Origin: Thermoplasmata archaeon
Lineage (GTDB): Archaea; Thermoplasmatota; Thermoplasmata; Lutacidiplasmatales; UBA184
Direction: 5' to 3'
Length of the DNA: 64,000 bases
NCBI GenBank assembly: GCA_035623855.1
Contig: DASPSQ010000001.1
Span: forward strand, 46,092-110,091
This document shows, one piece after another, positions 11,743 through 37,913 of this stretch; positions within the stretch are counted from its first letter, which is position 1, and each line of letters starts with the position of its first letter. Under the pieces are notes generated by a model that saw only the letters and a program-made list of their open reading frames with translations, ran no database searches and was not told where the DNA came from. The position numbers and the translations under genes are program-made.

Positions 11743-12357
11743 CTAGGCAGAGTAATCCGGCGGGACTTCGGGAGTCCCGAGCGTGTGGTTTGCCACGAGG
11801 GCCAAGATGAAGAGGAGGTCGCTCAACCGATTGGCCCATGCGAGGAGTTCGGCCCGGAGCGGTTCGACCTTGTGCAGCCGCAGGAGTTCGGTCTCCGCTC
11901 GGCGGGAAATCGTGCGGCAAACGTGAAATTGCGCGGCCGCGCGAGATCCACCGGGGATTACGAACGAGTGAATAGGGGAGAGCTCCGCCTGGAATCGATC
12001 GATGTCTCGCTCGAGCCGTTCGACGTGTGCCGAGTTGATTCGATGGCGTGGCGAACGGGGGCGCGGTGTGGCAAGTTCGGCCTGCGCGACGAAGAGCTCG
12101 TGTCCCAGTCGAACGAGGATCGGTCGGAGAGTCTCCAGCTCGGGGGGCAAATCGGCCAGAGCGAGCCCCAGCTGGGAGCCGAGCTCGTCGTACGTCCCGT
12201 AGGCGCGGATGCGATCGGAGTCCTTGCTTACGCGGGACCCGCCGACAAGACCGGTAGTTCCGTGGTCACCCGTACGGGTATAGACACGCGGGATGCTCTC
12301 GCCTCCGGTCGCCACGGCAGCTGGTCCAAGGGAGAGCTCAGGCCGTGAACGGGACAA
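11743..12357 (-). CDS. ATP:cob(I)alamin adenosyltransferase, PduO type
   Basis: YTRTGDHGTTGLVGGSRVSKDSDRIRAYGTYDELGS matches the PduO/MMAB N-terminal signature. The ORF-track start is a TTG and the true start is likely a few codons before VYTRTGD. Confidence 0.75.
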   Translation of the reverse strand: MSRSRPELSLGPAAVATGGESIPRVYTRTGDHGTTGLVGGSRVSKDSDRIRAYGTYDELGSQLGLALADLPPELETLRPILVRLGHELFVAQAELATPRPRSPRHRINSAHVERLERDIDRFQAELSPIHSFVIPGGSRAAAQFHVCRTISRRAETELLRLHKVEPLRAELLAWANRLSDLLFILALVANHTLGTPEVPPDYSA

Positions 12358-12481
12358 TACGAGATGTGCAGCACCTCATTATGCTTGGCGTCCTGACGGC
12401 ACAGTCGGCAGATGAACCCGCTCCGCTCGCTCCAGGCGATCCCCATCGATTCCATGATGCAACCCTTCCCCGCTTCGGAGG

Positions 12482-12880
12482 TTATCGCCGGAGGAGCCCC
12501 CGACCCTCCCGTTCCGCCCGGTGCCGCCCCGCACGACGCTCGCTCGCCGACCTCGCGCGGTCGCGCAAGGCCGGGACGTGTTCGTCGTGGGTGCGAGCGA
12601 GCTCCCGAATGCCGAGCGTCAGGACGAGCGTAATCGCGCCGTCCAGGTCTCGGGCATAGCCATCCTCCACGAGATCCTCAAGCTCGTTCCGCAGGGTTGC
12701 GGGGAGCTCCACGGTCGTCGCCTTGCCCTCTGTTGCACCGCGCACGAGGGCACGAACCGCTTCGGAACGGTTCGGCAATCGGCGACTCGTTTGGAATCTC
12801 TCGAGGAGCGACTCTTCCTCGGTCGTCAGGCGAACTCCGAGAAAGTGAGTCGCGGGAGCTTCGGCTCGAGCGGTTCGCAC
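12482..12880 (-). CDS. ribbon-helix-helix (CopG/Arc-like) DNA-binding protein
   Basis: LGVRLTTEEESLLERF...RSEAVRALV is an RHH motif, followed by a second RHH-like segment. GTG start. Confidence 0.5.
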   Translation of the reverse strand: MRTARAEAPATHFLGVRLTTEEESLLERFQTSRRLPNRSEAVRALVRGATEGKATTVELPATLRNELEDLVEDGYARDLDGAITLVLTLGIRELARTHDEHVPALRDRARSASERRAGRHRAEREGRGLLRR

Positions 12881-12883
12881 GCC

Positions 12884-12945
12884 GTTTAACAGAATTAAAC
12901 GAATATTTAGTTATTCCGCAGATTTTGTTAAACACTTGGGGGCAA
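12884..12945. promoter_or_regulatory. AT-rich divergent promoter region with TATA-like elements
   Basis: The only strongly AT-rich stretch in about 10 kb: cgtttaacagaattaaacgaatatttagttattccgcagattttgttaaaca. It lies directly upstream of the RHH gene start (12880, minus strand) and about 180 nt upstream of the aminopeptidase gene. Confidence 0.4.
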
Positions 12946-13118
12946 GGCGTCTCCAACCCCTCGAACCCGGGACGTCCATGCAAGCCCTTCCGTCAGAAGC
13001 GCGGAACCTGAGGGCGTCAGTTGTTCGGACGCGCAAGACTCCGCGGTCGAACCGATGTGCCCACCGTTTCACAACCCCTGCATGATACAAATAGGCCCGT
13101 CGACGTCGGCTCCCTCCC

Positions 13119-14231
13119 ATGGTCGAAATCCCCTCGAAGTTGCACCGGGACACTGCCCGCAACATCGTGACCAAGTACCTCAAAATCCGGCCAGGAGAGA
13201 ACGCGATCATCGAGTCATGGGACCATACGATGCCGATAGCCGCCGCAATGGTCGACGAGATTCGCCGTGTGGGGGGCAAAACCCTCCACATCCACGAAGA
13301 CGAAGATGCGTGGTGGCGCGCGATCGACCGGAAGCAGAGCAAGCTCCTCGGCAGGTCGAGCGCGCCCGAGTGGGCGGCATTGAACGCCACGGATGTGTAC
13401 GTGCATTTCTGGGGTCCGGGTGATACGGACCGCCTCGAGAAGATTCCCGAGAGGACGTTCTACGAAGCGCTCGCTTGGTTCACGCCTTGGTACCAGGTCG
13501 CCAGGAAATCGGGCCTCCGCGGTGGGCGGGTGGCCCTTGGGTTCGCGACGGAAGGGCGGGCGAAGCAGTGGGGCTTGGATCGCGCTCGGTGGGAGGAAAG
13601 CATCCTACGCGCGTGCCTCACCGACCCGGTGGAGACGGCCAAAAGCGGGGCCCGGCTCTACAAGGCCATCTCCCACGGAAAGAAGGTGCGGATCACCCAC
13701 TCCAATGGAACCGACATTGAGGTCGCCTTGGCCGGCGGCGCTCCGCGGTTGCATGACGGGACGCCGCACCCTCGGGACAAGAGATACGGCCCGAGTGACA
13801 TGCTGGCTCAGATCCCCGCCGGACGCATCGACGTGGCCCTCGACTCCAAGACTGCGGAGGGAATCATCCACGCCAATCGCAGGACCAACATCTGGTGGCA
13901 TTGGACCGCCGGTGGAACGCTCGAGTTCTCTGACGGCAAGCTCGGCTCGTATTCCTTCGAGAAAGGAAAGGAGGAGTTTGACACCATGTACAAGAAGGGC
14001 ACGGCAGGCAAGGACCGCACCGGCTCACTCACTTTCGGGCTGAACCCGGCCGCCAAGGATGTCCCCCACTTGGAGAACGTCGAGCTCGGCTGCCTGACCC
14101 TCGCCATCGGGAGGAACCAGCACCTCGGGGGGGGCACCAACGGATCGAATTTCATGGATTGGATCTCGCTCGCCGGCTCTGAGGTCGCGATCGACGGGAC
14201 CCCGGTCATCCGCGCCGGAAAGCTCCTCTAG
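13119..14231 (+). CDS. aminopeptidase, M29 (thermophilic metalloprotease/AmpS) family
   Basis: 370 aa. Size and composition fit the M29 aminopeptidase T/II family. The assignment rests on recalled family resemblance, not a unique motif. Confidence 0.45.
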   Translation: MVEIPSKLHRDTARNIVTKYLKIRPGENAIIESWDHTMPIAAAMVDEIRRVGGKTLHIHEDEDAWWRAIDRKQSKLLGRSSAPEWAALNATDVYVHFWGPGDTDRLEKIPERTFYEALAWFTPWYQVARKSGLRGGRVALGFATEGRAKQWGLDRARWEESILRACLTDPVETAKSGARLYKAISHGKKVRITHSNGTDIEVALAGGAPRLHDGTPHPRDKRYGPSDMLAQIPAGRIDVALDSKTAEGIIHANRRTNIWWHWTAGGTLEFSDGKLGSYSFEKGKEEFDTMYKKGTAGKDRTGSLTFGLNPAAKDVPHLENVELGCLTLAIGRNQHLGGGTNGSNFMDWISLAGSEVAIDGTPVIRAGKLL

Positions 14232-14380
14232 ACCTGCCCCCAATCACTGCATTCGCGTAAGTTGCAACGGTCCTTGCACCCAGAGATTGCTCGTGGCTTG
14301 TCGCTTATGCAGACGGTCGAGCATGTGCTTAACCCACACTTTAATCGCTGCTCAGCGTAGCCCCTTCCGAAGGTGTCTCG

Positions 14381-14866
14381 ATGCCCGTGAGCTCTGTGCG
14401 ATTTCGGTTTCGTCAAGCTTTCCGGGTTCCGGCCAAGGCCGCGTACGAGTGGTGCACGGATTACCAACCCAGTGACGCTCGCTTCTTTGAACAGAAGTGG
14501 CGACGTGAGGTTCGCCGACTGGCCAAGGACGCGATTCTCCTGACCGAGACGACGTGGCCCGGGGGACGGACTTGTGTCATTCAGAGACTCGTACGGTTGA
14601 GCCCTCAAGATCTCGCATGGACGAACACTCACATTTCGGGACCCTTCCGGCATTCACAGTATTGGTACCGCATCGTCCCTGACGCGCCTCGGCGGTCGCA
14701 TCTCGAGTTTACCGGAATGCGCCTGATTCGAACTCCGAGGTCGCTAAGCCCCGCCCAGAAGACCCGGCTGACGGACCAGGAACGGCGCGGTGATTCCGCT
14801 CTCTGGCACCGAATTGCGCGGGCACTCGAACGTGAGATTGGGTCGCGGACCTACAGCGAACCATAG
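14381..14866 (+). CDS. SRPBCC (polyketide cyclase/START-like) domain protein
   Basis: VPAKAAYEWCTDYQPSD.. start typical of the Polyketide_cyc2/SRPBCC fold. Confidence 0.4.
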   Translation: MPVSSVRFRFRQAFRVPAKAAYEWCTDYQPSDARFFEQKWRREVRRLAKDAILLTETTWPGGRTCVIQRLVRLSPQDLAWTNTHISGPFRHSQYWYRIVPDAPRRSHLEFTGMRLIRTPRSLSPAQKTRLTDQERRGDSALWHRIARALEREIGSRTYSEP

Positions 14867-14988
14867 GTGCAAGTCCCCGCTTTCACCCAGCCGGGGAGAT
14901 TGGACCGCACCCGCCAGTAGATCCCCAAGTCGGCAAGACAAAGAATATCCCCGAATCGATCTATCCCTGTCGAAGAGGTTGAGAGACG

Positions 14989-15393
14989 ATGGCGAAATCC
15001 GTGGAGTTCGTGACCCTCATCCCGATTCGGAACATGAGCCGGGCGGTTCGGTTCTATTCGAAGCAGCTCGGCGGCAAGGTCACGATGCGGGGAACCGGCG
15101 AAATGAGGGACTCCTGGACTTCCATGAGTATCGCCGGCCACCACGTCTGGCTCGTGGCGCCCGACAAGCGGGAGAAACGAGCCCTCGCCTACACGACTCT
15201 TATGGTCAAGAACGCGAAGCGGTACGTGAAGTCCCTTCAGCGTCGTGGCGTGCGGTTCCAGCGAGGGGAATCGATGGGTCCGGACTCAACGGTCGAAGGG
15301 CCGGTCGTGTCGAATCCCTACGGAACAACGGCGTTCTTCAAGGATCCCGAGGGTAATCTCTGGATGGTTTTTCAGGTCCCCTCCGGAGTGTAG
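14989..15393 (+). CDS. VOC family (glyoxalase/bleomycin-resistance fold) protein
   Basis: 134 aa: EFVTLIPIRNMSRAVRFYSKQLGG...FFKDPEGNLWMV is a typical VOC module. Confidence 0.6.
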   Translation: MAKSVEFVTLIPIRNMSRAVRFYSKQLGGKVTMRGTGEMRDSWTSMSIAGHHVWLVAPDKREKRALAYTTLMVKNAKRYVKSLQRRGVRFQRGESMGPDSTVEGPVVSNPYGTTAFFKDPEGNLWMVFQVPSGV

Positions 15394-28925: not shown

Positions 28926-29963
28926 ATGTCGGGTCGAGTGAATCGACGATGGCTGGTGGCGAAGCGCTTCGACGGACAACTCACGGAAGCTAATTTTCGA
29001 TGGGTGGAGTCACCGGCTCCCGCTCCCGGCGAGGGTCAATTCCTAGTGCACAATCTCTGGCTCTCCTTCGACCCTACCCAGATCTTCATGCTCGGCCGAA
29101 GCGACGCCGTCGAACCGAATGACAGCGGAATCCCACTCGGCGAAGTGATGAACTGCATCGCGGTGTCGGAAGTGCTCGAGTCCCGGCACCCGGGTTTCGC
29201 GCCCGGGGACATCGTGCACGGCCACACCGCCTGGGAGGACTACACGGTCACAGACGGCCAGAGTTTCACCCCCACTTATCGGGTCCCGGAGGGAGTTCCC
29301 GCCAACTGGGCGGTCGGCGTGCTTGGACTCACGGGACTGGTGGCGTACTTCGGGGTCCACGAAATTGCGCGGCCCAAACCGGATGAGACCCTCGTCATCT
29401 CCGGAGCTGCCGGCGGCGTGGGGTCGATCGCATCCCAGCTCGCCAAGATCTACGGGCTCCGGGTCATCGGCATCGCCGGAAGTCCGGCGAAGTGCGAGTG
29501 GCTCCTGCACGAAGCAGGCGTGGACGGCGTGATCAATTACCGGACGGAGGACGTCGGAAAGCGGCTCACCGAACTTTGTCCGGACGGGATTGACATCTTC
29601 TTCGACAACGACGGTGGGCCCACCCTCGATATCGCCCTCGATCGGTTGCGGGCCGGGGGCCGGGTCGTGCTCTGCGGTGCGACCTCACGATACGCCGCCA
29701 AGCCCCAGCCCCCGGGTCCCGTCAACTACCTCGCCCTCGTCATGGTCAATGGACGGATGGAGGGACTCCTGGGACGGGACTACATCCCTCGGCGAGCCGA
29801 GGCGGTCGATGCCATGCTACCGTTGCTTCGTTCGGGCCGTCTCAAGTCGAAGGAGGACGTGTTGGTCGGGCTTCGCGAGGCACCGAGAGGCCTCGCGAGG
29901 CTCTACTCGGGGGACAATATCGGAAAGCAACTCCTCCGAATGGACCCGGCTCCGGGGAATTGA
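28926..29963 (+). CDS. NADP-dependent oxidoreductase, MDR superfamily (YncB/LTB4 12-HD-like)
   Basis: Rossmann motif SGAAGGVGSIASQLAKIYGLRVIGIAGS. It is paralogous (about half of residues identical by eye) to 36618..37649. Confidence 0.8.
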   Translation: MSGRVNRRWLVAKRFDGQLTEANFRWVESPAPAPGEGQFLVHNLWLSFDPTQIFMLGRSDAVEPNDSGIPLGEVMNCIAVSEVLESRHPGFAPGDIVHGHTAWEDYTVTDGQSFTPTYRVPEGVPANWAVGVLGLTGLVAYFGVHEIARPKPDETLVISGAAGGVGSIASQLAKIYGLRVIGIAGSPAKCEWLLHEAGVDGVINYRTEDVGKRLTELCPDGIDIFFDNDGGPTLDIALDRLRAGGRVVLCGATSRYAAKPQPPGPVNYLALVMVNGRMEGLLGRDYIPRRAEAVDAMLPLLRSGRLKSKEDVLVGLREAPRGLARLYSGDNIGKQLLRMDPAPGN

Positions 29964-30142: not shown

Positions 30143-30171
30143 GGTATTTATCCCTATTGATGCGTATTTAT
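30143..30171 (+). promoter_or_regulatory. two direct copies of a TATA-like element (gtatttat) about 20 nt apart, upstream of the flotillin-GTPase operon (coordinates approximate)
   Basis: taggtatttatccctattgatgcgtatttatttca is the only AT-rich patch between the oxidoreductase gene and the operon. Confidence 0.35.
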
Positions 30172-30327
30172 TTCATCGGGCTCCTGCTGACGGCGGGAGT
30201 CGACCGAAGGGGGAAGGAAGCTGATGGCGGACCCAGCTCGCTCGGGCCACGTCGGAAGCTCTCTCGCCCCCCTCGGAGTTTTTTCGAACCCAGCGTCCAC
30301 GTCTGCTAACCCCGCCCGGGTCGACGG

Positions 30328-31380
30328 TTGGCACCAGGAGCGCCCCGCGCTTGCCGCACGCGGCGTCCCTTCCGGGGTGTGGCAAGGCAGAATGTGGTGC
30401 TCATCGATTTAGCCTGGCCGATCGCCGAGGCAGGTGGATTCGTAGCCGCGACGGCATTCGCGGTTTGGCTGGTCTACACCCGGTGCAGTGTTCGGGTACC
30501 GCCGAACCGCGCGCTGGTCCTCTTCGGTCGCCGAGCTCCCCGGCCTGCTTCCGACTCCCCGCTCATTCCCTCCGACGTGACGCTCCGCCGACCGAGAATC
30601 GTGGTCGGAGGGAGGGCGTTCGTCGCTCCCTGGGACCGAGGGGTGGGGTACCTTTCGCTCGCGCCGATCGCGGTCGAGGTGACGGTCCGTTCGATGCATG
30701 CGCTCGAAGGGACGCGGGCCTCGGGTTGGGAAGTCCGAGTGCAGGCGCAGGCGAAGGTCCCGGCCGAGCCGGGCTTTCTCTCCGTGGCCTCGGAGAACCT
30801 GCTCGGCAAGACGGATGAGGAGGTCCGTTCGCTGATCGTCCGGACCTTAGAGGGAGCCATCCCCGCCGTCCTCGCTCGGGTCAAGACCGAGGACGGGGAA
30901 CCCGACTGGGACCGCCTGGCCGCCGAGATCCAGGCGTGCGCGGCCCCCGACCTCGTCGCGGTGGGACTCACGGTCCGCACCCTAACGGTCACCGAACTCC
31001 ACCGGATCTCGCCTCCGGCCCCCGCTGCGATCGCCCCCTTCCCGAAAGCGGACCCGGACCGAGACCGAGTGGTCGAAGCCATCGGCTCCCGCTTGAGCGG
31101 TCTCGATGCCCGTCTTGACCGCACGGAGCGGAGTCTGAGAACTCTGGGGGAAGCGATCCTGCGGACCATCCGGCGTCCGGGACTGGAGCTTGACCCTCCG
31201 AGCCACCCGTCCGTGTTCGACCGTCCGTTGGGTTCGGACGTTGCCGCCGTCGAGCCGGCGAGTTCGGACGCTTTCCTTCACGATCCTTCGGGGGGCGAGC
31301 TTTCGCCCCGCCCGCGAACGTCGCCGTTGGGCGACCTGGCGCGAGAGCGGTCGGGCGATTCCCGGTTCCCGTTGGAGTAA
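30328..31380 (+). CDS. flotillin-like SPFH/band-7 domain membrane protein
   Basis: TM helix IAEAGGFVAATAFAVWLVY. Then VPPNRALVLFGRR..RIVVGGRAFVAPWDRGVGYLSLAPIAVEVTVRS..LLGKTDEEVRSLIVRTLEGAIPAVLARVKTED aligns block by block with flotillin-1 ([67 protein letters not shown]). The ORF-track start is a TTG and the true start is probably an internal GTG near 30379-30397. Confidence 0.8.
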   Translation: MAPGAPRACRTRRPFRGVARQNVVLIDLAWPIAEAGGFVAATAFAVWLVYTRCSVRVPPNRALVLFGRRAPRPASDSPLIPSDVTLRRPRIVVGGRAFVAPWDRGVGYLSLAPIAVEVTVRSMHALEGTRASGWEVRVQAQAKVPAEPGFLSVASENLLGKTDEEVRSLIVRTLEGAIPAVLARVKTEDGEPDWDRLAAEIQACAAPDLVAVGLTVRTLTVTELHRISPPAPAAIAPFPKADPDRDRVVEAIGSRLSGLDARLDRTERSLRTLGEAILRTIRRPGLELDPPSHPSVFDRPLGSDVAAVEPASSDAFLHDPSGGELSPRPRTSPLGDLARERSGDSRFPLE

Positions 31381-31401
31381 GCAAAGGAGAGAAAGAAAAC
31401 C

Positions 31402-32421
31402 ATGTGTCCGGCAGCAATTTTGGGCGACCGTGCGTGCGGAAAGACGACCTTCCTTGGGCTCCTCTATGCGGCTCAAGTGAAGTACGGAACCCGGGTGTTG
31501 GATTCGTTCCGATTCCACGCCCCGCTCCAGTCGTTGCGCCTCATGAGCCAGGTCTACGAGGGGATGAAAGACGCCCGATTCCCCGGGGCCACGCTCAAGG
31601 ACGAAATGACGGAAATCGGCTTCGTGTTCGGGTATCGTAAGCCCATTTCAGGACGCCTCCCGGCCGCGCTCAAGGACAAGAACTGGGTGAATCCGTTCGC
31701 GAAGCTATCCTTCGCAGCGTACGACGTATCCGGCGAGGACGTCCAGGAGTTCATCGAGACCGGGGTGGCCGCGAGCCCGATCATTCAGCAGCTGCTGAAG
31801 AGCCATGTCGTCGTCATTCTGGTCGACTGCAGCAAGATGACGACCGAGATCGACTCGCCCGTGTTCCGGCAGATGCTGAAGTACGACAGCGAGGTCGCGA
31901 GCCTCCTCGTCTCCCTCCAGACGTACAAGAAGCAGGAGTTCTCGCGGATGAAGACCCAGGGACTGAGCGTCGGCAACCCGGTGATCTACCCGGCGATCGT
32001 CCTCTCGAAGTTCGACTGCGTCCGGGACGAGGTACTGGTGAAGCTGGGGCTCCACCGAGGAGTTCCCGACGGGGAGCAGAAGCGGCGGCGCAAGGAGTAC
32101 GCGGAGGCGCTCCTCCGTGTGTTCATGCCGCAGACGCTCTCGCAGATCCGCGGCGGCAAGGTCGCCGGGGTCAACTTCGACCAAGCGGCGTACTTCTTCA
32201 GCTGGGTCCGAACCGAGACGGCCGAGGCCGGCATGCAGCCGCTCGGCGTGCCGCGCATCGTTCGGAAGGGATTCTCGGCCGAAGGCGGCGCGGAGCCGGA
32301 CTTCTCCTACGACGACTATGTCGCGTTCATCGAGCACTTCCGCGACGTCGCGAACAAGGTGCCCGACGAGATCGTCGAGCAGACCACGCTCCAGACCCCG
32401 CCCACCGCGGCGACCGCCTAG
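31402..32421 (+). CDS. small GTPase of Arf/SRbeta/MglA-like type with long C-terminal extension
   Basis: G1 ILGDRACGKTTFLGLL, G3 AAYDVSGED (DxxG), G4 LSKFD (NKxD-like). The ATG is preceded by aaggagag. Confidence 0.7.
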   Translation: MCPAAILGDRACGKTTFLGLLYAAQVKYGTRVLDSFRFHAPLQSLRLMSQVYEGMKDARFPGATLKDEMTEIGFVFGYRKPISGRLPAALKDKNWVNPFAKLSFAAYDVSGEDVQEFIETGVAASPIIQQLLKSHVVVILVDCSKMTTEIDSPVFRQMLKYDSEVASLLVSLQTYKKQEFSRMKTQGLSVGNPVIYPAIVLSKFDCVRDEVLVKLGLHRGVPDGEQKRRRKEYAEALLRVFMPQTLSQIRGGKVAGVNFDQAAYFFSWVRTETAEAGMQPLGVPRIVRKGFSAEGGAEPDFSYDDYVAFIEHFRDVANKVPDEIVEQTTLQTPPTAATA

Positions 32422-32470
32422 GGGCCGAGGCGCGACCGGACGGAACGCACGCACGGGAGGAGCAACTACG

Positions 32471-33283
32471 ATGAGCGACGCAACGGTGCTCGAGCTCGAG
32501 CACTGGATCTACGGAGCCAGCCACGAGAAAGGGTACGGGACGAAGGCCGAGTCCCGCGGCCTCAACGGGCCGCTCTACATGCGCTACCTCGAGAATCACC
32601 TGACACCCGTTCGGGTCGAGAAGACCGCGGGCGGCGGGACGTTGATCGACGCGCGGATGATCCATCCCGCCCCCGCGAATCGCGAGGTCCTGCTGTCGAT
32701 CCTGGGTCGAGGAGTCGCGGACGAGTACAACCGGCCCACGATCGCGAACCACACCGTCGTCATCCCCTACGACGCCCTTCGCACCGGTCAGCTTCGATTC
32801 GCCGATGTCGAAGCCGCCACGGTCGAGTTCGACCACAAGTTCCCGAAGGCCCTCGGCAAGGTCGACCCGATCCCGGTGAAGCTGCGCGCGCCCGGAGAGT
32901 CCCAAGAACCGCGGGGGTCGGGGATTCGCCGACTGATCACGAAGGCCGCGGTCGACACGCTCGCCAGCCGGTTCCTCGCGGACCACCAGGGACGAACCCT
33001 GATCCTCTGCCGGGGGAGCTCGAACCAGTACCGCAACGAGCTCCTCTACCACCTCGTGGAGCTCCTGCACGCCGGGGAGGAGATCGCGCTCTTCCCTGCC
33101 ATCAGCGACGCCCCGACCCTGAGCGCGATGAATCACTTCCGCCTCGCGATCTCGTCGCGCGGGGTTCGAGCGGATGGGTCGTGGACCCTGCTCGATGCGA
33201 GCATCGACCAGCCGACACTCCCTCCGATCAAGGGGAAGAGCCTCGTCTACAACCGCATCGCGGAGGCGTTCGCGTCGACGTAG
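32471..33283 (+). CDS. hypothetical protein between the two GTPase paralogs
   Basis: 270 aa. The ATG is preceded by gggagg, and it has the same codon-usage appearance as its neighbours. No motif recognised. Confidence 0.5.
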   Translation: MSDATVLELEHWIYGASHEKGYGTKAESRGLNGPLYMRYLENHLTPVRVEKTAGGGTLIDARMIHPAPANREVLLSILGRGVADEYNRPTIANHTVVIPYDALRTGQLRFADVEAATVEFDHKFPKALGKVDPIPVKLRAPGESQEPRGSGIRRLITKAAVDTLASRFLADHQGRTLILCRGSSNQYRNELLYHLVELLHAGEEIALFPAISDAPTLSAMNHFRLAISSRGVRADGSWTLLDASIDQPTLPPIKGKSLVYNRIAEAFAST

Positions 33284-33322
33284 GGCGAGCGTCACGAGAA
33301 CTCATTCGACCGAGGCCGGGCT

Positions 33323-34273
33323 GTGGGATCCGCGCTAGTCGTTGGCGACCGCGGCTCCGGCCTCACCACTTTCGTGGGACTCCTCTACGCGGCGCAGCTT
33401 CGGCTCGGTACCGAGGAGAGGGATGAATTCCGCTTCTCGGCGGACCGGGAGACGATTCGCCAGCTTGAGGGGATCTACGGGGAGCTGGTGGCCGGCCGAT
33501 TCCCCGATTGGGACGCGGACTGGGACACCCACCCCCTATCGTTCGTCTTCGCGTTCCGGTCCGGCACCTTCCCCCGGCTGAGGGGTGCCGGGGTAAGTCA
33601 CGATGGAGGGTTCGATTCGTTCCGGGTTCAGGTCGGGGGAATTTCGGTGGAAACGGTGGCCGAGTTGTCCGAGCACGATGCCATCCTCGAGAATTCCACG
33701 CGCGAGCTGCTCCGGAGCCCCGTCGTGCTTCCGCTCGTCGACGCGTCACGGCTCCTACCGTTGGTCGAGGAGATGGACCGACGCCCGCTCGAACGGTACG
33801 ACCGAATGCTCGCGGCGACCCTTGACCTGCTATCTCGCTTCCTATCGGCGGGGCGGGTCCGAAAGCTTCGGACCCTCTACCCAATGTTCGTGGTCACGAA
33901 GTTGGACCAGTGCCCTTCCGAGACCCTGAAACGCTTCCACATCCCCGCCGGCGTTCCGTCGAGTTGGCCCGCCGGGACCCGAGAGTCGGTGGGGGAGAAC
34001 ATCCTGACCTCCTACCTCCCGGAGACCCTTCGACTCATCCGGACGACGAAGGGTCGAAGGGGGGGCAGTATCGCGCTACCGAAATGGTTCTTTAGCGGCC
34101 TTCAGCTGGTTGCAGGACCCGAGGGGGTACGAATCGCTCGACGCTCCCGGATCCCCGTTGGCGGCTGGGAGCCGGAATACCCCTTCGAGGAATACCGGAT
34201 ACTCATTCGCCAGTTGGCCGTGCTGGCGCACCGCCTTCCCACTTGGGACGAAAGCACTCTTCGCCCCGATTAG
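33323..34273 (+). CDS. paralog of the upstream small GTPase with a degenerate P-loop (pseudo-GTPase)
   Basis: LVVGDRGSGLTTFVGLLYAAQ versus AILGDRACGKTTFLGLLYAAQ: the Walker-A Lys is replaced by Leu. The G4 VTKLD is retained. GTG start. Confidence 0.65.
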   Translation: MGSALVVGDRGSGLTTFVGLLYAAQLRLGTEERDEFRFSADRETIRQLEGIYGELVAGRFPDWDADWDTHPLSFVFAFRSGTFPRLRGAGVSHDGGFDSFRVQVGGISVETVAELSEHDAILENSTRELLRSPVVLPLVDASRLLPLVEEMDRRPLERYDRMLAATLDLLSRFLSAGRVRKLRTLYPMFVVTKLDQCPSETLKRFHIPAGVPSSWPAGTRESVGENILTSYLPETLRLIRTTKGRRGGSIALPKWFFSGLQLVAGPEGVRIARRSRIPVGGWEPEYPFEEYRILIRQLAVLAHRLPTWDESTLRPD

Positions 34274-36052: not shown

Positions 36053-36316
36053 TCAAGCCGGTAGCGGAAGATAGAACCCACACCGGGTACAGTAGACACT
36101 ACCGGTGCCATTCGGCCAACCGCACTGGGCGCACGTGGTCTCCCGACCCGTGCCGGAGGAGGCGGAATCGGATCCGATACCCCAGAGCAGGCCCGCTCCC
36201 ATGCATACCAATCCGATGAAAACCACCACAAACCCTTCCCCAACCGAGACGGGCATCAGCAATGCGCCCACGACGAGGAAAAACGCTCCGACGATCAGCG
36301 CAGGGACGCTCGCCAT
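36053..36316 (-). CDS. small membrane protein with C-terminal zinc ribbon
   Basis: Two TM helices (ALIVGAFFLVVGALLMPV; VVVFIGLVCMGAGLLWGI) then CAQCG...CTRCG. The start is taken at the internal ATG of ORF-track 36053..36556. Confidence 0.4.
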   Translation of the reverse strand: MASVPALIVGAFFLVVGALLMPVSVGEGFVVVFIGLVCMGAGLLWGIGSDSASSGTGRETTCAQCGWPNGTGSVYCTRCGFYLPLPA

Positions 36317-36617
36317 GCTGCTGGCGGTAGGACATGGATGTACTTCTCCGATTCTCATACATAGGATCCGGAGGTTGAGTCCCCTCACGGTGGTCGATGG
36401 GGTGACCTCGTCCGTCGCCGGGAGCCGACGGCGACCTACGAACAAACGAAAGGGCAAGTTTCGAGTTTGATCCGGGTCGATGGCTTGGACGCACCCGTTG
36501 GGAACACCAATCCCTTCGTCTACCAGCGAGTTGGCTGTGACAGTTCTTGCGACCAAGCCCGACCCGAATGGCCCGCCGATTACGGAGCGTTAATCCCCAC
36601 CGTCCAAATTCCGCAGC

Positions 36618-37649
36618 TCACGACGGAATCGGCAGGGGTGGGTCGGCGAGCTTGAGGAGTTGTTTGCCAAAGTTCTCGCCCTTGAACAGCCGCGCCAGAG
36701 TCTTCGGGGCGTTCTCGAGGCCGACGGCGATGTCGACCCTCTGCTTTAGACGACCTTCGGCGTGCCATCGCGCCAGCACCGGCAACGCCTCCGAGAATCG
36801 TGCGGCGTAATCGAAGATGAGGAAACCTTCCATTCGGCCCCGACTCCGAATCAGGATGGAGTAATTCCTCAACGGACGGAACTCCCACGCGACATAATTC
36901 GAGATCGCGCCGCACATCACGATCCGCGCGTGCAGGTTGATCCGGGCCAGCACCTCGTCGAGAATCTCGCCGCCAACGTTGTCGAAATACACGTCGATCC
37001 CGTGCGGGCAGGTCTCGGAAAGACGGGGACCGACTTGCTCCCCGCGATAGTCGATGGCGGCATCGAAGCCCGCCTCCTTCCGCAACCACTCGCACTTCGC
37101 GGGACCCCCGGCGATGCCGACCACACGGGCTCCGAGGATCTTGGCGATCTGGCCGGCGATCGAACCGACCGCGCCCGCCGCGCTCGAGACGACGAACGTC
37201 TCTCCCGATCGGACCTTGCCGATATCCGTCACGCCAAAGTAGGCGGTCAACCCGGTGCCGCCCAAGAGGCTCATCGCTAACTCCGGCGCCACGCCGGGAG
37301 GAACTCTCGCGAGCGGGCTCAAGCCGCCCCTGCTGGTAGCGACGTAGTCTTGCCAACCGATGGGGCCGGTGACGAGCTCGCCGACCTTGAAACCCGCATT
37401 GCGCGACTCAATCACCTGACTCACCCCGAAGGCGCGCATCACCTCGCCGAGCGGGACCTTCGGGGCGTATGTGTCCGCCTTCATCCAACCTATTTGCGTC
37501 GGATCGCAGGAGATCCAAAGGTTCCGGAGGAGGACCTCTCCGTCCCGTGGCGTCGGGATCGAGGTCTCCGTCCACTTGAAGTTCTGTTCACTGAACATGC
37601 CTTCGGGCCGGCTCGCGAGCAGCCACTGGCGGTTCTTCCCACCCATCAT
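36618..37649 (-). CDS. NADP-dependent oxidoreductase, MDR superfamily (paralog of 28926..29963)
   Basis: SSAAGAVGSIAGQIAKILGARVVGIAGGPAKCEW. Conserved blocks NLWISCDPTQ and GLTAYFGV are shared with the paralog. Confidence 0.8.
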   Translation of the reverse strand: MMGGKNRQWLLASRPEGMFSEQNFKWTETSIPTPRDGEVLLRNLWISCDPTQIGWMKADTYAPKVPLGEVMRAFGVSQVIESRNAGFKVGELVTGPIGWQDYVATSRGGLSPLARVPPGVAPELAMSLLGGTGLTAYFGVTDIGKVRSGETFVVSSAAGAVGSIAGQIAKILGARVVGIAGGPAKCEWLRKEAGFDAAIDYRGEQVGPRLSETCPHGIDVYFDNVGGEILDEVLARINLHARIVMCGAISNYVAWEFRPLRNYSILIRSRGRMEGFLIFDYAARFSEALPVLARWHAEGRLKQRVDIAVGLENAPKTLARLFKGENFGKQLLKLADPPLPIPS

Positions 37650-37913
37650 CGGACCTCCCTCCAGCAATCGAGGTCGTTCCTACCATCAAAGACTCAGGAC
37701 CGGTATAACTCCGGGCCCGGATTGTTCGGTGAGCCTATCCGAGGTCAGACCGTCGTCCGGAGCGTTCACCGCTTCTCCTGAAGGAGGTAGGATGCCCAGC
37801 GTCCGAGGCGACCCGAATCCCGAGGAATTGAGCGGCCTCTCCACTTCCCCGCGCCCATCGCGTGCGCTCCCGGAGGTAAACTTGTGAGTACTGCCACCAC
37901 CTGTAACTCGGCA

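Follow-up and report, generated by a model that had tools for sequence, protein, structure and literature searches.

The closest described counterparts of the gene cluster considered here are the DO-GTPase systems, whose GTPases were defined as TRAFAC GTPases with a conserved glutamate in Walker B, often present in two paralogous copies (Kaur et al., eLife 2020, PMC7159879). They are always accompanied by a GAP1 partner (GAP1-N1/N2, -M, -C), a GASH or FNIII component and variable effectors, and are predicted to act as membrane-proximal conflict systems (PMC7159879). Two paralogous GTPase genes occur in 38% of the described DO-GTPase/GAP1 systems, in which GASH goes with GAP1-N1 and the FNIII-repeat component with GAP1-N2 (eLife 2020). 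Here we describe a five-gene cluster from a Thermoplasmata archaeon (Lutacidiplasmatales; assembly GCA_035623855.1, contig DASPSQ010000001.1), located in a stretch of 64,000 nucleotides that is referred to below as the window. The cluster encodes an SPFH-domain protein (P1), a GTPase (P2), a protein with a predicted TagF/longin-like fold (P3), a probable pseudo-GTPase (P4) and a convergently transcribed orphan protein (P5). We propose, with about even confidence, that the locus elaborates, in a lineage-specific manner, on an archaeal core of two genes, for a DO-GTPase-like GTPase and a TagF/longin-DENN-like protein, and that it encodes a nucleotide-gated switch coupled to an SPFH platform.

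Other parts of the cluster also have known parallels. GTPases are known to share operons with longin- or roadblock-type partners (MglAB, Asgard), and eukaryotes, Asgard archaea and MglB-type systems rely on the longin-like fold for binding and regulating GTPases. SPFH proteins are found in the pairings FloT/YuaG-YuaF, SPFH1-NfeD, HflK/C-FtsH and YdjI-PspA. SPFH operons with NfeD, YuaF, FtsH, PspA and ESCRT-related partners have been described (PMC2636767, PMC11188069). The GTPase itself belongs remotely to a described family, the DO-GTPases. In the literature searched, which was open full text and excluded most subscription journals, we found no description of a DO-GTPase-like pair with a TagF/longin-like partner replacing GAP1, of the P3 and P5 families, or of a GTPase partner for any SPFH family; an earlier first-pass annotation of the window, which knew of no SPFH-GTPase operon, is borne out within the same scope.

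The GTPase pair and its conserved linkage

P2 (31402-32421, + strand, 339 amino acids, at the same coordinates as in the first-pass annotation) contains the G1 motif GDRACGKTT, the Walker B/G3 motif YDVSGED and the G4 motif SKFD, that is, the G1 P-loop, Walker B/G3 and NKxD-like G4 of a TRAFAC-type GTPase. These positions are unchanged in an alignment of 18 homologs (37-100% identity) and in all P2 orthologs surveyed, so the earlier reading of complete G1, G3 and G4 motifs (GDRACGKTT, DVSGE, SKFD) holds well beyond this genome. The D108-V-S-G111-E112 segment is likewise invariant and provides the Walker B glutamate (DxxGE) that characterizes DO-GTPases. P4 (33323-34273, + strand, 316 amino acids, GTG start) is a full-length paralog of P2 (BLASTP, 29% identity, E 6e-38), in which the P-loop reads GDRGSGLTT, with leucine where lysine is expected, while the G4 motif TKLD is kept. 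The first-pass annotation had recognised this paralogy and the lysine-to-leucine change; to these can be added the loss of G3/Walker B, since the corresponding segment (VQVGGISVE) lacks a DxxG motif. A motif census showed that the second GTPase paralog lacks Walker B/G3 in every clade; L, T, V, A, Q, R or M stands in place of its P-loop lysine in several clades, whereas the 68%-identity clade keeps the lysine. Whatever the clade, nearly all loci keep the G4 motif [ST]KxD in the two paralogs alike. Judged by these motif states, P2 is probably an active TRAFAC GTPase and a remote relative of the DO-GTPases, and P4 a pseudo-GTPase paralog of P2, which supports the earlier notion of an active and an inactive G protein encoded side by side.

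Pfam matches of P2 itself to the DO-GTPases are sub-threshold, both for DO-GTPase2 (E 4e-5, 23.8 bits against a cutoff of 27, residues 5-27 only) and for DO-GTPase1 (E 0.007, 16.1 bits), and many P2 homologs carry precomputed PF19993/PF19975 matches. An hhalign comparison of the P2 family profile with the DO-GTPase2 domain of a canonical archaeal member gave 96.5% (E 1e-9, 222 columns), and this alignment runs from the P-loop to beyond G4, pairing FAAYDVSGED with FVLTDLSGED and SKFD with TKYD. The first-pass annotation had placed the GTPase closest to Arf, SRbeta or MglA, which was not upheld: the Arf, Ras, MglA and SRbeta families of Pfam and NCBIfam gave no P2 match at E <= 1, and the P2 family profile retrieved no GTPase at E <= 10 among all PDB sequences. 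P2, with its 339 amino acids, is also roughly double the length of a small GTPase. The DO-GTPases thus appear, at the level of sequence, to be the only detectable relatives of P2 and P4.

The likeness to DO-GTPase/GAP1 systems (Pfam PF19975, PF19993) extends to the paralogous GTPase pair in one operon, the DxxGE motif, a constant core with lineage-variable accessories and a predicted membrane-proximal switch. The two-paralog arrangement is found here as P2 and P4, and a pair with one degenerate copy occurs in most Thermoplasmata clades. However, GAP1, GASH and FNIII were not detected: no GASH or FNIII component was matched by Pfam in the five window proteins, and no GAP1 partner was found in P3 or P5 by Pfam, in P3 by hhalign or, apart from one marginal match described below, among 16 and 35 P3 homologs. 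Their place is taken by a TagF/longin-like protein and an orphan helical protein. Further differences are that one paralog is a probable pseudo-GTPase, that the GTPases have neither zinc ribbons nor transmembrane segments, and that the family is essentially archaeal (Thermoplasmatota, one Thermoproteota), with the window proteins below the Pfam thresholds.

To follow the cluster across species, relatives were scanned in one genome per GTDB species, which yielded 111 relatives, with 80 loci kept, and partners were mapped from tblastn searches of all loci with the window proteins and from genes called on representative contigs. All but two loci belong to metagenome-assembled genomes (MAGs) titled Thermoplasmata, Thermoplasmatota, Methanobacteriota or Methanomassiliicoccales, the exceptions by title being L013 ('bacterium') and L085 ('Deltaproteobacteria bacterium'), and named protein matches likewise come from Thermoplasmata or Euryarchaeota MAGs. 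Homologs of P2, P3 and P4 occur together in essentially all 80 species-representative loci, a linkage far beyond chance. P2 and P3 are adjacent everywhere, including the loci in which P3 is at the detection limit, and these two genes form the universal core, with P4 and P5 present in progressively narrower sets of clades; the degenerate second GTPase is found in most Thermoplasmata clades. Flanking genes are common only within genus-level groups, and even a locus with a 99% identical P2 has other flanks. The flanks decay while the cluster persists, and the cluster is therefore kept together as one unit.

At only 28-30% identity, the P2-P3 dyad can still be traced in Ignisphaera aggregans and in a Tara Oceans-linked locus, whose P3 falls in a cluster that includes Tara Oceans members. 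In Ignisphaera aggregans DSM 17230, Igag_0820 is the P3 protein, and the gene upstream of it encodes a P2 homolog of full length (hhalign 100%, E 9e-48). At this locus (L093, 4967-6777), the GTPase-P3 pair is separated by a 3-nucleotide gap and followed by a gene for an 816-amino-acid WD40 beta-propeller protein.

Within the clade that carries the SPFH gene, median identity to the window proteins falls from 94% for P2 to 74% for P3, 52% for P4, 51% for P5 and 46% for P1. P2 is 92-99% identical in all but five of the 46 species-level loci of this clade (range 79.5-99.1%). In loci L007-L053, P2 is unusually constrained relative to its four partners (94% against medians of 46-74%).

The partner proteins P3, P1 and P5

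P3 (32471-33283, + strand, 270 amino acids) has no Pfam, NCBIfam, PADLOC or PHROGs match, in agreement with the first-pass annotation, which had seen no recognisable domain, and no Pfam family matches any P3 member scanned. The family is small, comprising 66 clusters at 50% identity among 1.84 billion proteins. An AlphaFold2 model built from 24 homologs was of mediocre quality, with a predicted local distance difference test score (pLDDT) of 61 and a predicted template modelling score (pTM) of 0.70, residues 16-58 and 215-252 lying below 50. One structure comparison matched this model to FNIP2, the Lst4 longin, LAMTOR3, Ccz1, NPRL3, folliculin and DENND10, and furthermore to C9orf72, NPR2, the RagC roadblock domain and an Asgard roadblock protein; FLCN, NPRL2/3, DENND1A and Mon1-Ccz1 longin modules are also listed among its likenesses. 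Foldseek gave TagF at E 1.8e-4 (probability 1.00, 237 columns), the Lst4 longin at 0.91 and a Loki longin at 0.60. Thus, two independent programs match the fold of the pLDDT 61 model mostly to GTPase-binding longin, roadblock and DENN proteins and to TagF. The predicted elements are a strand at 6-16, a low-confidence stretch, strands at 61-67, 72-80 and 91-99 and a helix at 110-123, an order that would fit a longin core and, after it, another alpha/beta domain; strand 2 and helix 1 would then fall in the low-confidence stretch. P3 is consequently predicted to be an orphan family with a TagF-like fold, in which an N-terminal longin-like domain is followed by a C-terminal alpha/beta part, a DENN-like arrangement.

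Across 35 members (18-39% identity), the near-invariant residues of P3 are G21, P46, D84, R88, H94, R188, P215 and W238. G21 precedes the expected second strand, and R88 is located in the hairpin that joins the last two strands. Longins that act as GTPase-activating proteins (GAPs) possess a GP motif plus an arginine finger (PMC12290439), of which G21 and R88 are reminiscent, an analogy that is offered as a lead rather than a result. A different link to the DO-GTPases was considered for P3 and is unsupported. GAP1-N2 gave one marginal match (E 0.088, co-linear over 89 residues) among 16 P3 homologs, a promising lead at first, given that DO-GTPase2 has GAP1-N2 as its cognate partner; however, no GAP1 domain was found among the 35 wider members, nor in P3 or P5 at E <= 1, and hhalign of P3 against an archaeal GAP1-N2 protein returned 0.8%.

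The resemblance of P3 to eukaryotic and Asgard longin regulators (FLCN-FNIP/RagC-D, NPRL2-NPRL3/RagA-B, C9orf72-SMCR8, DENND1-Rab35, Mon1-Ccz1, Asgard) consists of a predicted longin-like N-terminal domain with an alpha/beta part, encoded next to its presumed GTPase, which would work as a pair. There is no sequence similarity, however, P2 is of DO-GTPase rather than Ras-superfamily type, and the fold comes from the pLDDT 61 model. With MglA-MglB, the cluster shares a prokaryotic operon of a GTPase and a longin/roadblock-superfamily partner, whereas P2 has no detectable MglA/Ras similarity, P3 is twice the size of MglB and is predicted to have an extra domain beside its longin-like part, and a probable pseudo-GTPase is present. 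P3 also lacks sequence similarity to TagF (PDB 9t0n), an accessory protein of type VI secretion systems (T6SS) that is encoded in bacterial T6SS loci; no T6SS genes are present at this locus. To our knowledge, TagF is not known to bind a GTPase.

In other lineages, P3 is found in several domain fusions. It is fused to TIR_2 in P0402 (in L091), to HerA in P0384, P0385 and P0426, and to AAA+ in P0369, P0370 and P0395; a P3-AAA+-WH-DUF835 fusion is among the accessories of other clades, and HerA-P3 fusions adjoin a DO-GTPase-like gene. Fusion to the P-loop NTPases HerA and AAA+ fits an NTPase-partner domain. A GTPase-P3 fusion was also considered but rejected, as the N-terminal halves of P0384 and P0426 are HerA-type ATPases and not GTPases. 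In P0423, a distant member, P3 is fused to a sub-threshold FNIII-like stretch. Among the accessories of the 37-43% clade is an FHA protein, close to which a TIR and a TrkA_N-RyR protein are encoded. At L004 (988-3867), L090 (2543-5279) and L091 (884-4154) of this clade, a TIR gene and then a TrkA_N/RyR gene adjoin the FHA-GTPase-GTPase'-P3 cluster. The recurring TIR and TrkA_N/RyR genes together with the TIR-P3 fusion suggest an NAD-linked effector arm in the 37-43% clade.

Two further arrangements were seen among these loci. At L005, a canonical DO-GTPase (686 amino acids, with an N-terminal beta-propeller) and a GAP1-N2 protein (851 amino acids) are encoded at 11766-15011, about 1.2 kb downstream of a P2-like GTPase/P3-AAA+-WH-DUF835 pair, so that both kinds of GTPase system lie side by side on a 264-kb metagenome contig. 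At L092 (2659-7785), a Roadblock/LC7 gene and a GvpD/KaiC-like P-loop gene are located just upstream of a DO-GTPase-like gene, which is followed by a HerA-P3 fusion.

P1 (30394-31380, + strand) more likely starts at GTG 30394, just ahead of a hydrophobic anchor, although its open reading frame can be extended to TTG 30328. The first-pass annotation called it a bona fide flotillin, a description that stands for the SPFH domain and fails for the rest of the protein. An SPFH/Band 7 domain of flotillin type is present, as phmmer matched the P1 domain to human flotillin-1 (PDB 9bq2_B, E 3.5e-11, residues 85-259) and to flotillin-2 (E 5e-10). The NCBIfam FloT match is partial (4.6e-12, profile positions 43-183 of 477, 45.7 bits where the equivalog cutoff is 700), and Pfam Band_7 is sub-threshold in P1 (12.2 bits), its ortholog in L089 having a precomputed Band_7 match. 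The architecture consists of an N-terminal hydrophobic membrane anchor and the flotillin-like SPFH domain; past residue 225, the translation reads by eye as one short helix and a Pro/Ser/Asp-rich, apparently disordered tail, and a Pfam search found no match in P1 to the flotillin C-terminal domain family, a long EA-rich coiled coil. P1 is thus best regarded as an SPFH protein with a flotillin-like SPFH domain and not as a full flotillin. It resembles prokaryotic flotillins/SPFH2 (FloT/YuaG) in the N-terminal anchor, the flotillin-like SPFH domain and an operon shared with presumed partners, but differs in lacking the EA-rich C-terminal coiled coil and an NfeD/YuaF, FtsH or PspA partner.

The SPFH gene is confined to the clade with P2 identity of at least 79%, where it lies directly upstream on the same strand in 41 of the 42 loci with enough flank; linkage of SPFH and GTPase genes is therefore not a peculiarity of this genome. 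The sole exception, L048, is the second locus of a genome that also has an SPFH-linked copy, L020. The gene is found in none of the 33 loci of the next clade and in no more distant locus, which makes it an accessory of one clade and not part of the core. Two loci occur together in five MAGs (L046 and L054, L051 and L058, L044 and L064, L043 and L076, L020 and L048), one SPFH-linked and one without SPFH. The SPFH-linked P2 is about 87-95% identical to the window P2 in these genomes, and the second copies are about 64-68% identical in four pairs and about 85% in the L020/L048 pair.

P5 (34270-35835, - strand, 521 amino acids), which is convergent with P4, was overlooked by the first-pass annotation and is a conserved fifth member of the cluster. 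It is linked in 43 of 47 and in 27 of 33 species loci, as well as in the 53% clade (hhalign 100%), and is absent from the most distant clades; candidate homologs in the 37% clade and at a HerA-P3 locus were rejected by hhalign. No Pfam, NCBIfam, PADLOC or PHROGs family matches P5, its NCBIfam hits to RibD, FlgJ and DfrA35 (E 0.004-0.12) being noise far below the cutoffs, and no GAP1 domain was found among P5 members. In its model (pLDDT 77, good per domain), a charged helix at the N-terminus (6-44) leads through a disordered linker into a predicted helical domain (about 100-270). A helix-strand region (281-343), which reads to us as winged-helix-like, comes next, and an acidic disordered linker connects to a C-terminal alpha/beta domain. 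In the L001 homolog of P5, a zinc ribbon is fused to the N-terminus.

Organisation of the locus and its surroundings

As the first-pass annotation had described, P1 to P4 are co-directional and separated by gaps of 21, 49 and 39 nucleotides (P1-P2, P2-P3 and P3-P4). Shine-Dalgarno-like motifs precede the P2, P3 and P4 starts. These are AGGAG (31385-31389, + strand), 12 nucleotides ahead of the P2 ATG, GGAGGAG (32456-32462, + strand), 8 nucleotides ahead of the P3 ATG, and GAGG (33312-33315, + strand), 7 nucleotides ahead of the P4 GTG. P5 and P4 overlap by 4 nucleotides at their stop codons. Upstream of P1, the intergenic region contains an AT-rich stretch, read directly from the letters (TATTTAT..TATTTATTT, 30144-30175, + strand), in a window with about 64% GC overall, and this may be a putative archaeal TATA-type promoter region. 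A promoter scan for bacterial sigma-70 sites found no site there and, like the accompanying terminator scan, relied on bacterial models that are not informative for an archaeal host. No second copy of the module was found elsewhere in the 64-kb window.

The five-gene cluster is bracketed by two paralogous open reading frames in inverted orientation (28926-29963, + strand, and 36618-37667, - strand; 345 and 349 amino acids, 49.6% identical), which by eye resemble NADP-dependent oxidoreductases. The upstream one is common only to L007, a MAG contig that is 98-100% identical over the shared genes. This arrangement could be a coincidence or the trace of an insertion or rearrangement of the cluster. 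A small open reading frame (36053-36556, - strand, 167 amino acids), located 217 nucleotides upstream of P5 on the same strand, encodes hydrophobic segments and a C-terminal CxxC...CxxC zinc-ribbon-like motif; it was rejected as a cluster member, being conserved in no other locus.

A proposed nucleotide-gated switch and its alternatives

From the observed gene order and its conservation, the paralogy, the motif states, the remote DO-GTPase homology and the P3 domain fusions, we infer the following mechanism. P2 would be the only catalytically competent subunit and would pair with the degenerate P4, which keeps the guanine-specificity motif G4 without Walker B, as an asymmetric heterodimeric switch. 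The longin-like N-terminal domain of P3 would dock on one or both G domains, as longin/DENN proteins do on Rab, Rag and Arf GTPases, and P3 would set the nucleotide state as a GAP, a guanine-nucleotide exchange factor (GEF) or a state-specific adaptor, with the invariant R88 and R188 as candidate catalytic or contact residues. P5 may serve as an adaptor or output subunit. In the SPFH clade, the switch would be coupled to P1 as an oligomerising SPFH membrane scaffold, so that the binding and hydrolysis of GTP would control what assembles or is active at a membrane patch delimited by SPFH. The input may be stress on the membrane or envelope, attack by viruses or the routine organisation of membranes. 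This proposal is favoured by the genomic linkage, in which P3 always adjoins a P2-like GTPase, by the fold matches of P3 to GTPase-binding proteins, by the survival of the P2-P3 dyad at low identity and by the asymmetric constraint, with the medians descending from P2 (94%) to P1 (46%). In addition, paired DO-GTPases have been proposed to be dimeric switches near membranes (Kaur et al. 2020, PMC7159879).

Several observations weigh against the proposed switch. The longin fold predicted for P3 comes from the pLDDT 61 model, and the support for a putative P3-GTPase complex comes from genomic linkage. The Pfam TagF, Longin and DENN families match none of the 16 and 35 P3 family members, a sequence-profile search of the PDB with P3 gave no match, and neither models nor searches assigned a fold to P5. 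Moreover, the partner documented for TagF is Fha (PMC5995506). The SPFH gene is missing from the 68%, 53%, 45% and 37-43% clades and from Ignisphaera, that is, from most clades that bear the core, and membrane scaffolding therefore cannot be the ancestral function.

The kinship with DO-GTPases and the fusions of P3 to TIR, HerA and AAA+ point to conflict or stress signalling equally with membrane organisation. It is possible, though we consider it somewhat doubtful, that the locus is a DO-GTPase-type conflict system acting against viruses or by abortive infection, in which the GTPase pair would set a threshold, P3 and P5 would replace GAP1 as sensor or adaptor, and the SPFH protein would be a superstructure-forming membrane effector, a part played in other clades by TIR, AAA+ or HerA modules. 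Band7-like domains are indeed listed as effector-position scaffolds in related vWA-MoxR systems (PMC7159879), and the Walker B glutamate shared with the remote DO-GTPase homologs, the P3 fusions to TIR_2, HerA and AAA+, the TIR, TrkA_N-RyR and FHA genes adjoining the 37-43% clade loci, the accessory genes that vary round a constant core, the MAGs with two loci and the canonical DO-GTPase/GAP1-N2 pair beside L005 are all in line with such a role. However, for DO-GTPase systems themselves a role in conflict has been predicted only computationally, and PADLOC, PHROGs and viral contigs yielded no matches or relatives, so that no direct defence or virus label is attached to the cluster. The window flanks resemble ordinary metabolism (acyl-CoA dehydrogenase-, oxidoreductase- and hydrolase-like by eye from translations) and not a defence island, no recognisable toxic effector is present at the window locus, and a nearly invariant P2 in a cluster inherited with local synteny is unlike the components of an arms race.

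A housekeeping, eukaryote-like module of membrane organisation, in which a Rag/FLCN-like heterodimer with a longin-DENN regulator would place or remodel flotillin-type microdomains, is the reading of the first-pass annotation and is unlikely. The active and pseudo GTPases do recall the heterodimeric Rag GTPases, yet they have no detectable affinity to the Arf, Rag or Ras families; similarly, P3 resembles the longin modules of FNIP2, FLCN, NPRL2/3, C9orf72, DENND1A and Mon1-Ccz1, yet its fusions to TIR and HerA are ill-suited to trafficking. The stable linkage of the SPFH gene (41 of 42 loci) and the strong purifying selection on P2 are what such a module would lead one to expect, but P1 is without the C-terminal domain of flotillins, and neither Ignisphaera nor the 68%, 53%, 45% and 37-43% clades have the SPFH gene. 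Conservation of gene order in 80 species-level loci as the flanks decay, the G4 motif [ST]KxD, which the two paralogs share in nearly all loci whatever the clade, and the full-length hhalign match to a DO-GTPase, which spans G1 to G4, largely refute the remaining explanation, that the genes are unrelated neighbours or the G-like proteins another P-loop enzyme such as a kinase or AAA. The sub-threshold, partial Pfam DO-GTPase matches of the window P2 speak for it, and it is very improbable; nor did the GTPase fall into an unrelated P-loop family, the outcome that the first-pass annotation had said would count against its reading.

A bolder version of the proposed switch, to which we assign a low probability, would place P3 and bacterial TagF in one prokaryotic longin-DENN-like lineage, in which P3 would be a genuine GAP or GEF for a heterodimer of active and pseudo GTPases outside Asgard archaea and eukaryotes, controlling SPFH assembly in this clade. 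This would be an independent or ancestral prokaryotic version of Rag/FLCN logic on a membrane platform.

The cluster, with its degenerate GTPase, longin-like partner and SPFH protein, appears to be an undescribed variant of the double-GTPase systems in soil Thermoplasmata. The pairing of longin/DENN regulators with GTPases counts as a hallmark of membrane biology in eukaryotes and, recently, in Asgard archaea. A survey from 2013 stated that prokaryotes have no longin domains (PMC3747258). If the proposed switch is confirmed, it would offer a compact, co-encoded system for testing how longin-type regulators work, and structural work could draw on possibly thermostable proteins from the cultured hyperthermophilic crenarchaeon Ignisphaera aggregans (Igag_0820 and the GTPase encoded upstream of it). 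It would also suggest a molecular function for the enigmatic TagF fold, and would extend the DO-GTPase systems, which experiments have left untouched, by an archaeal branch whose partners differ.

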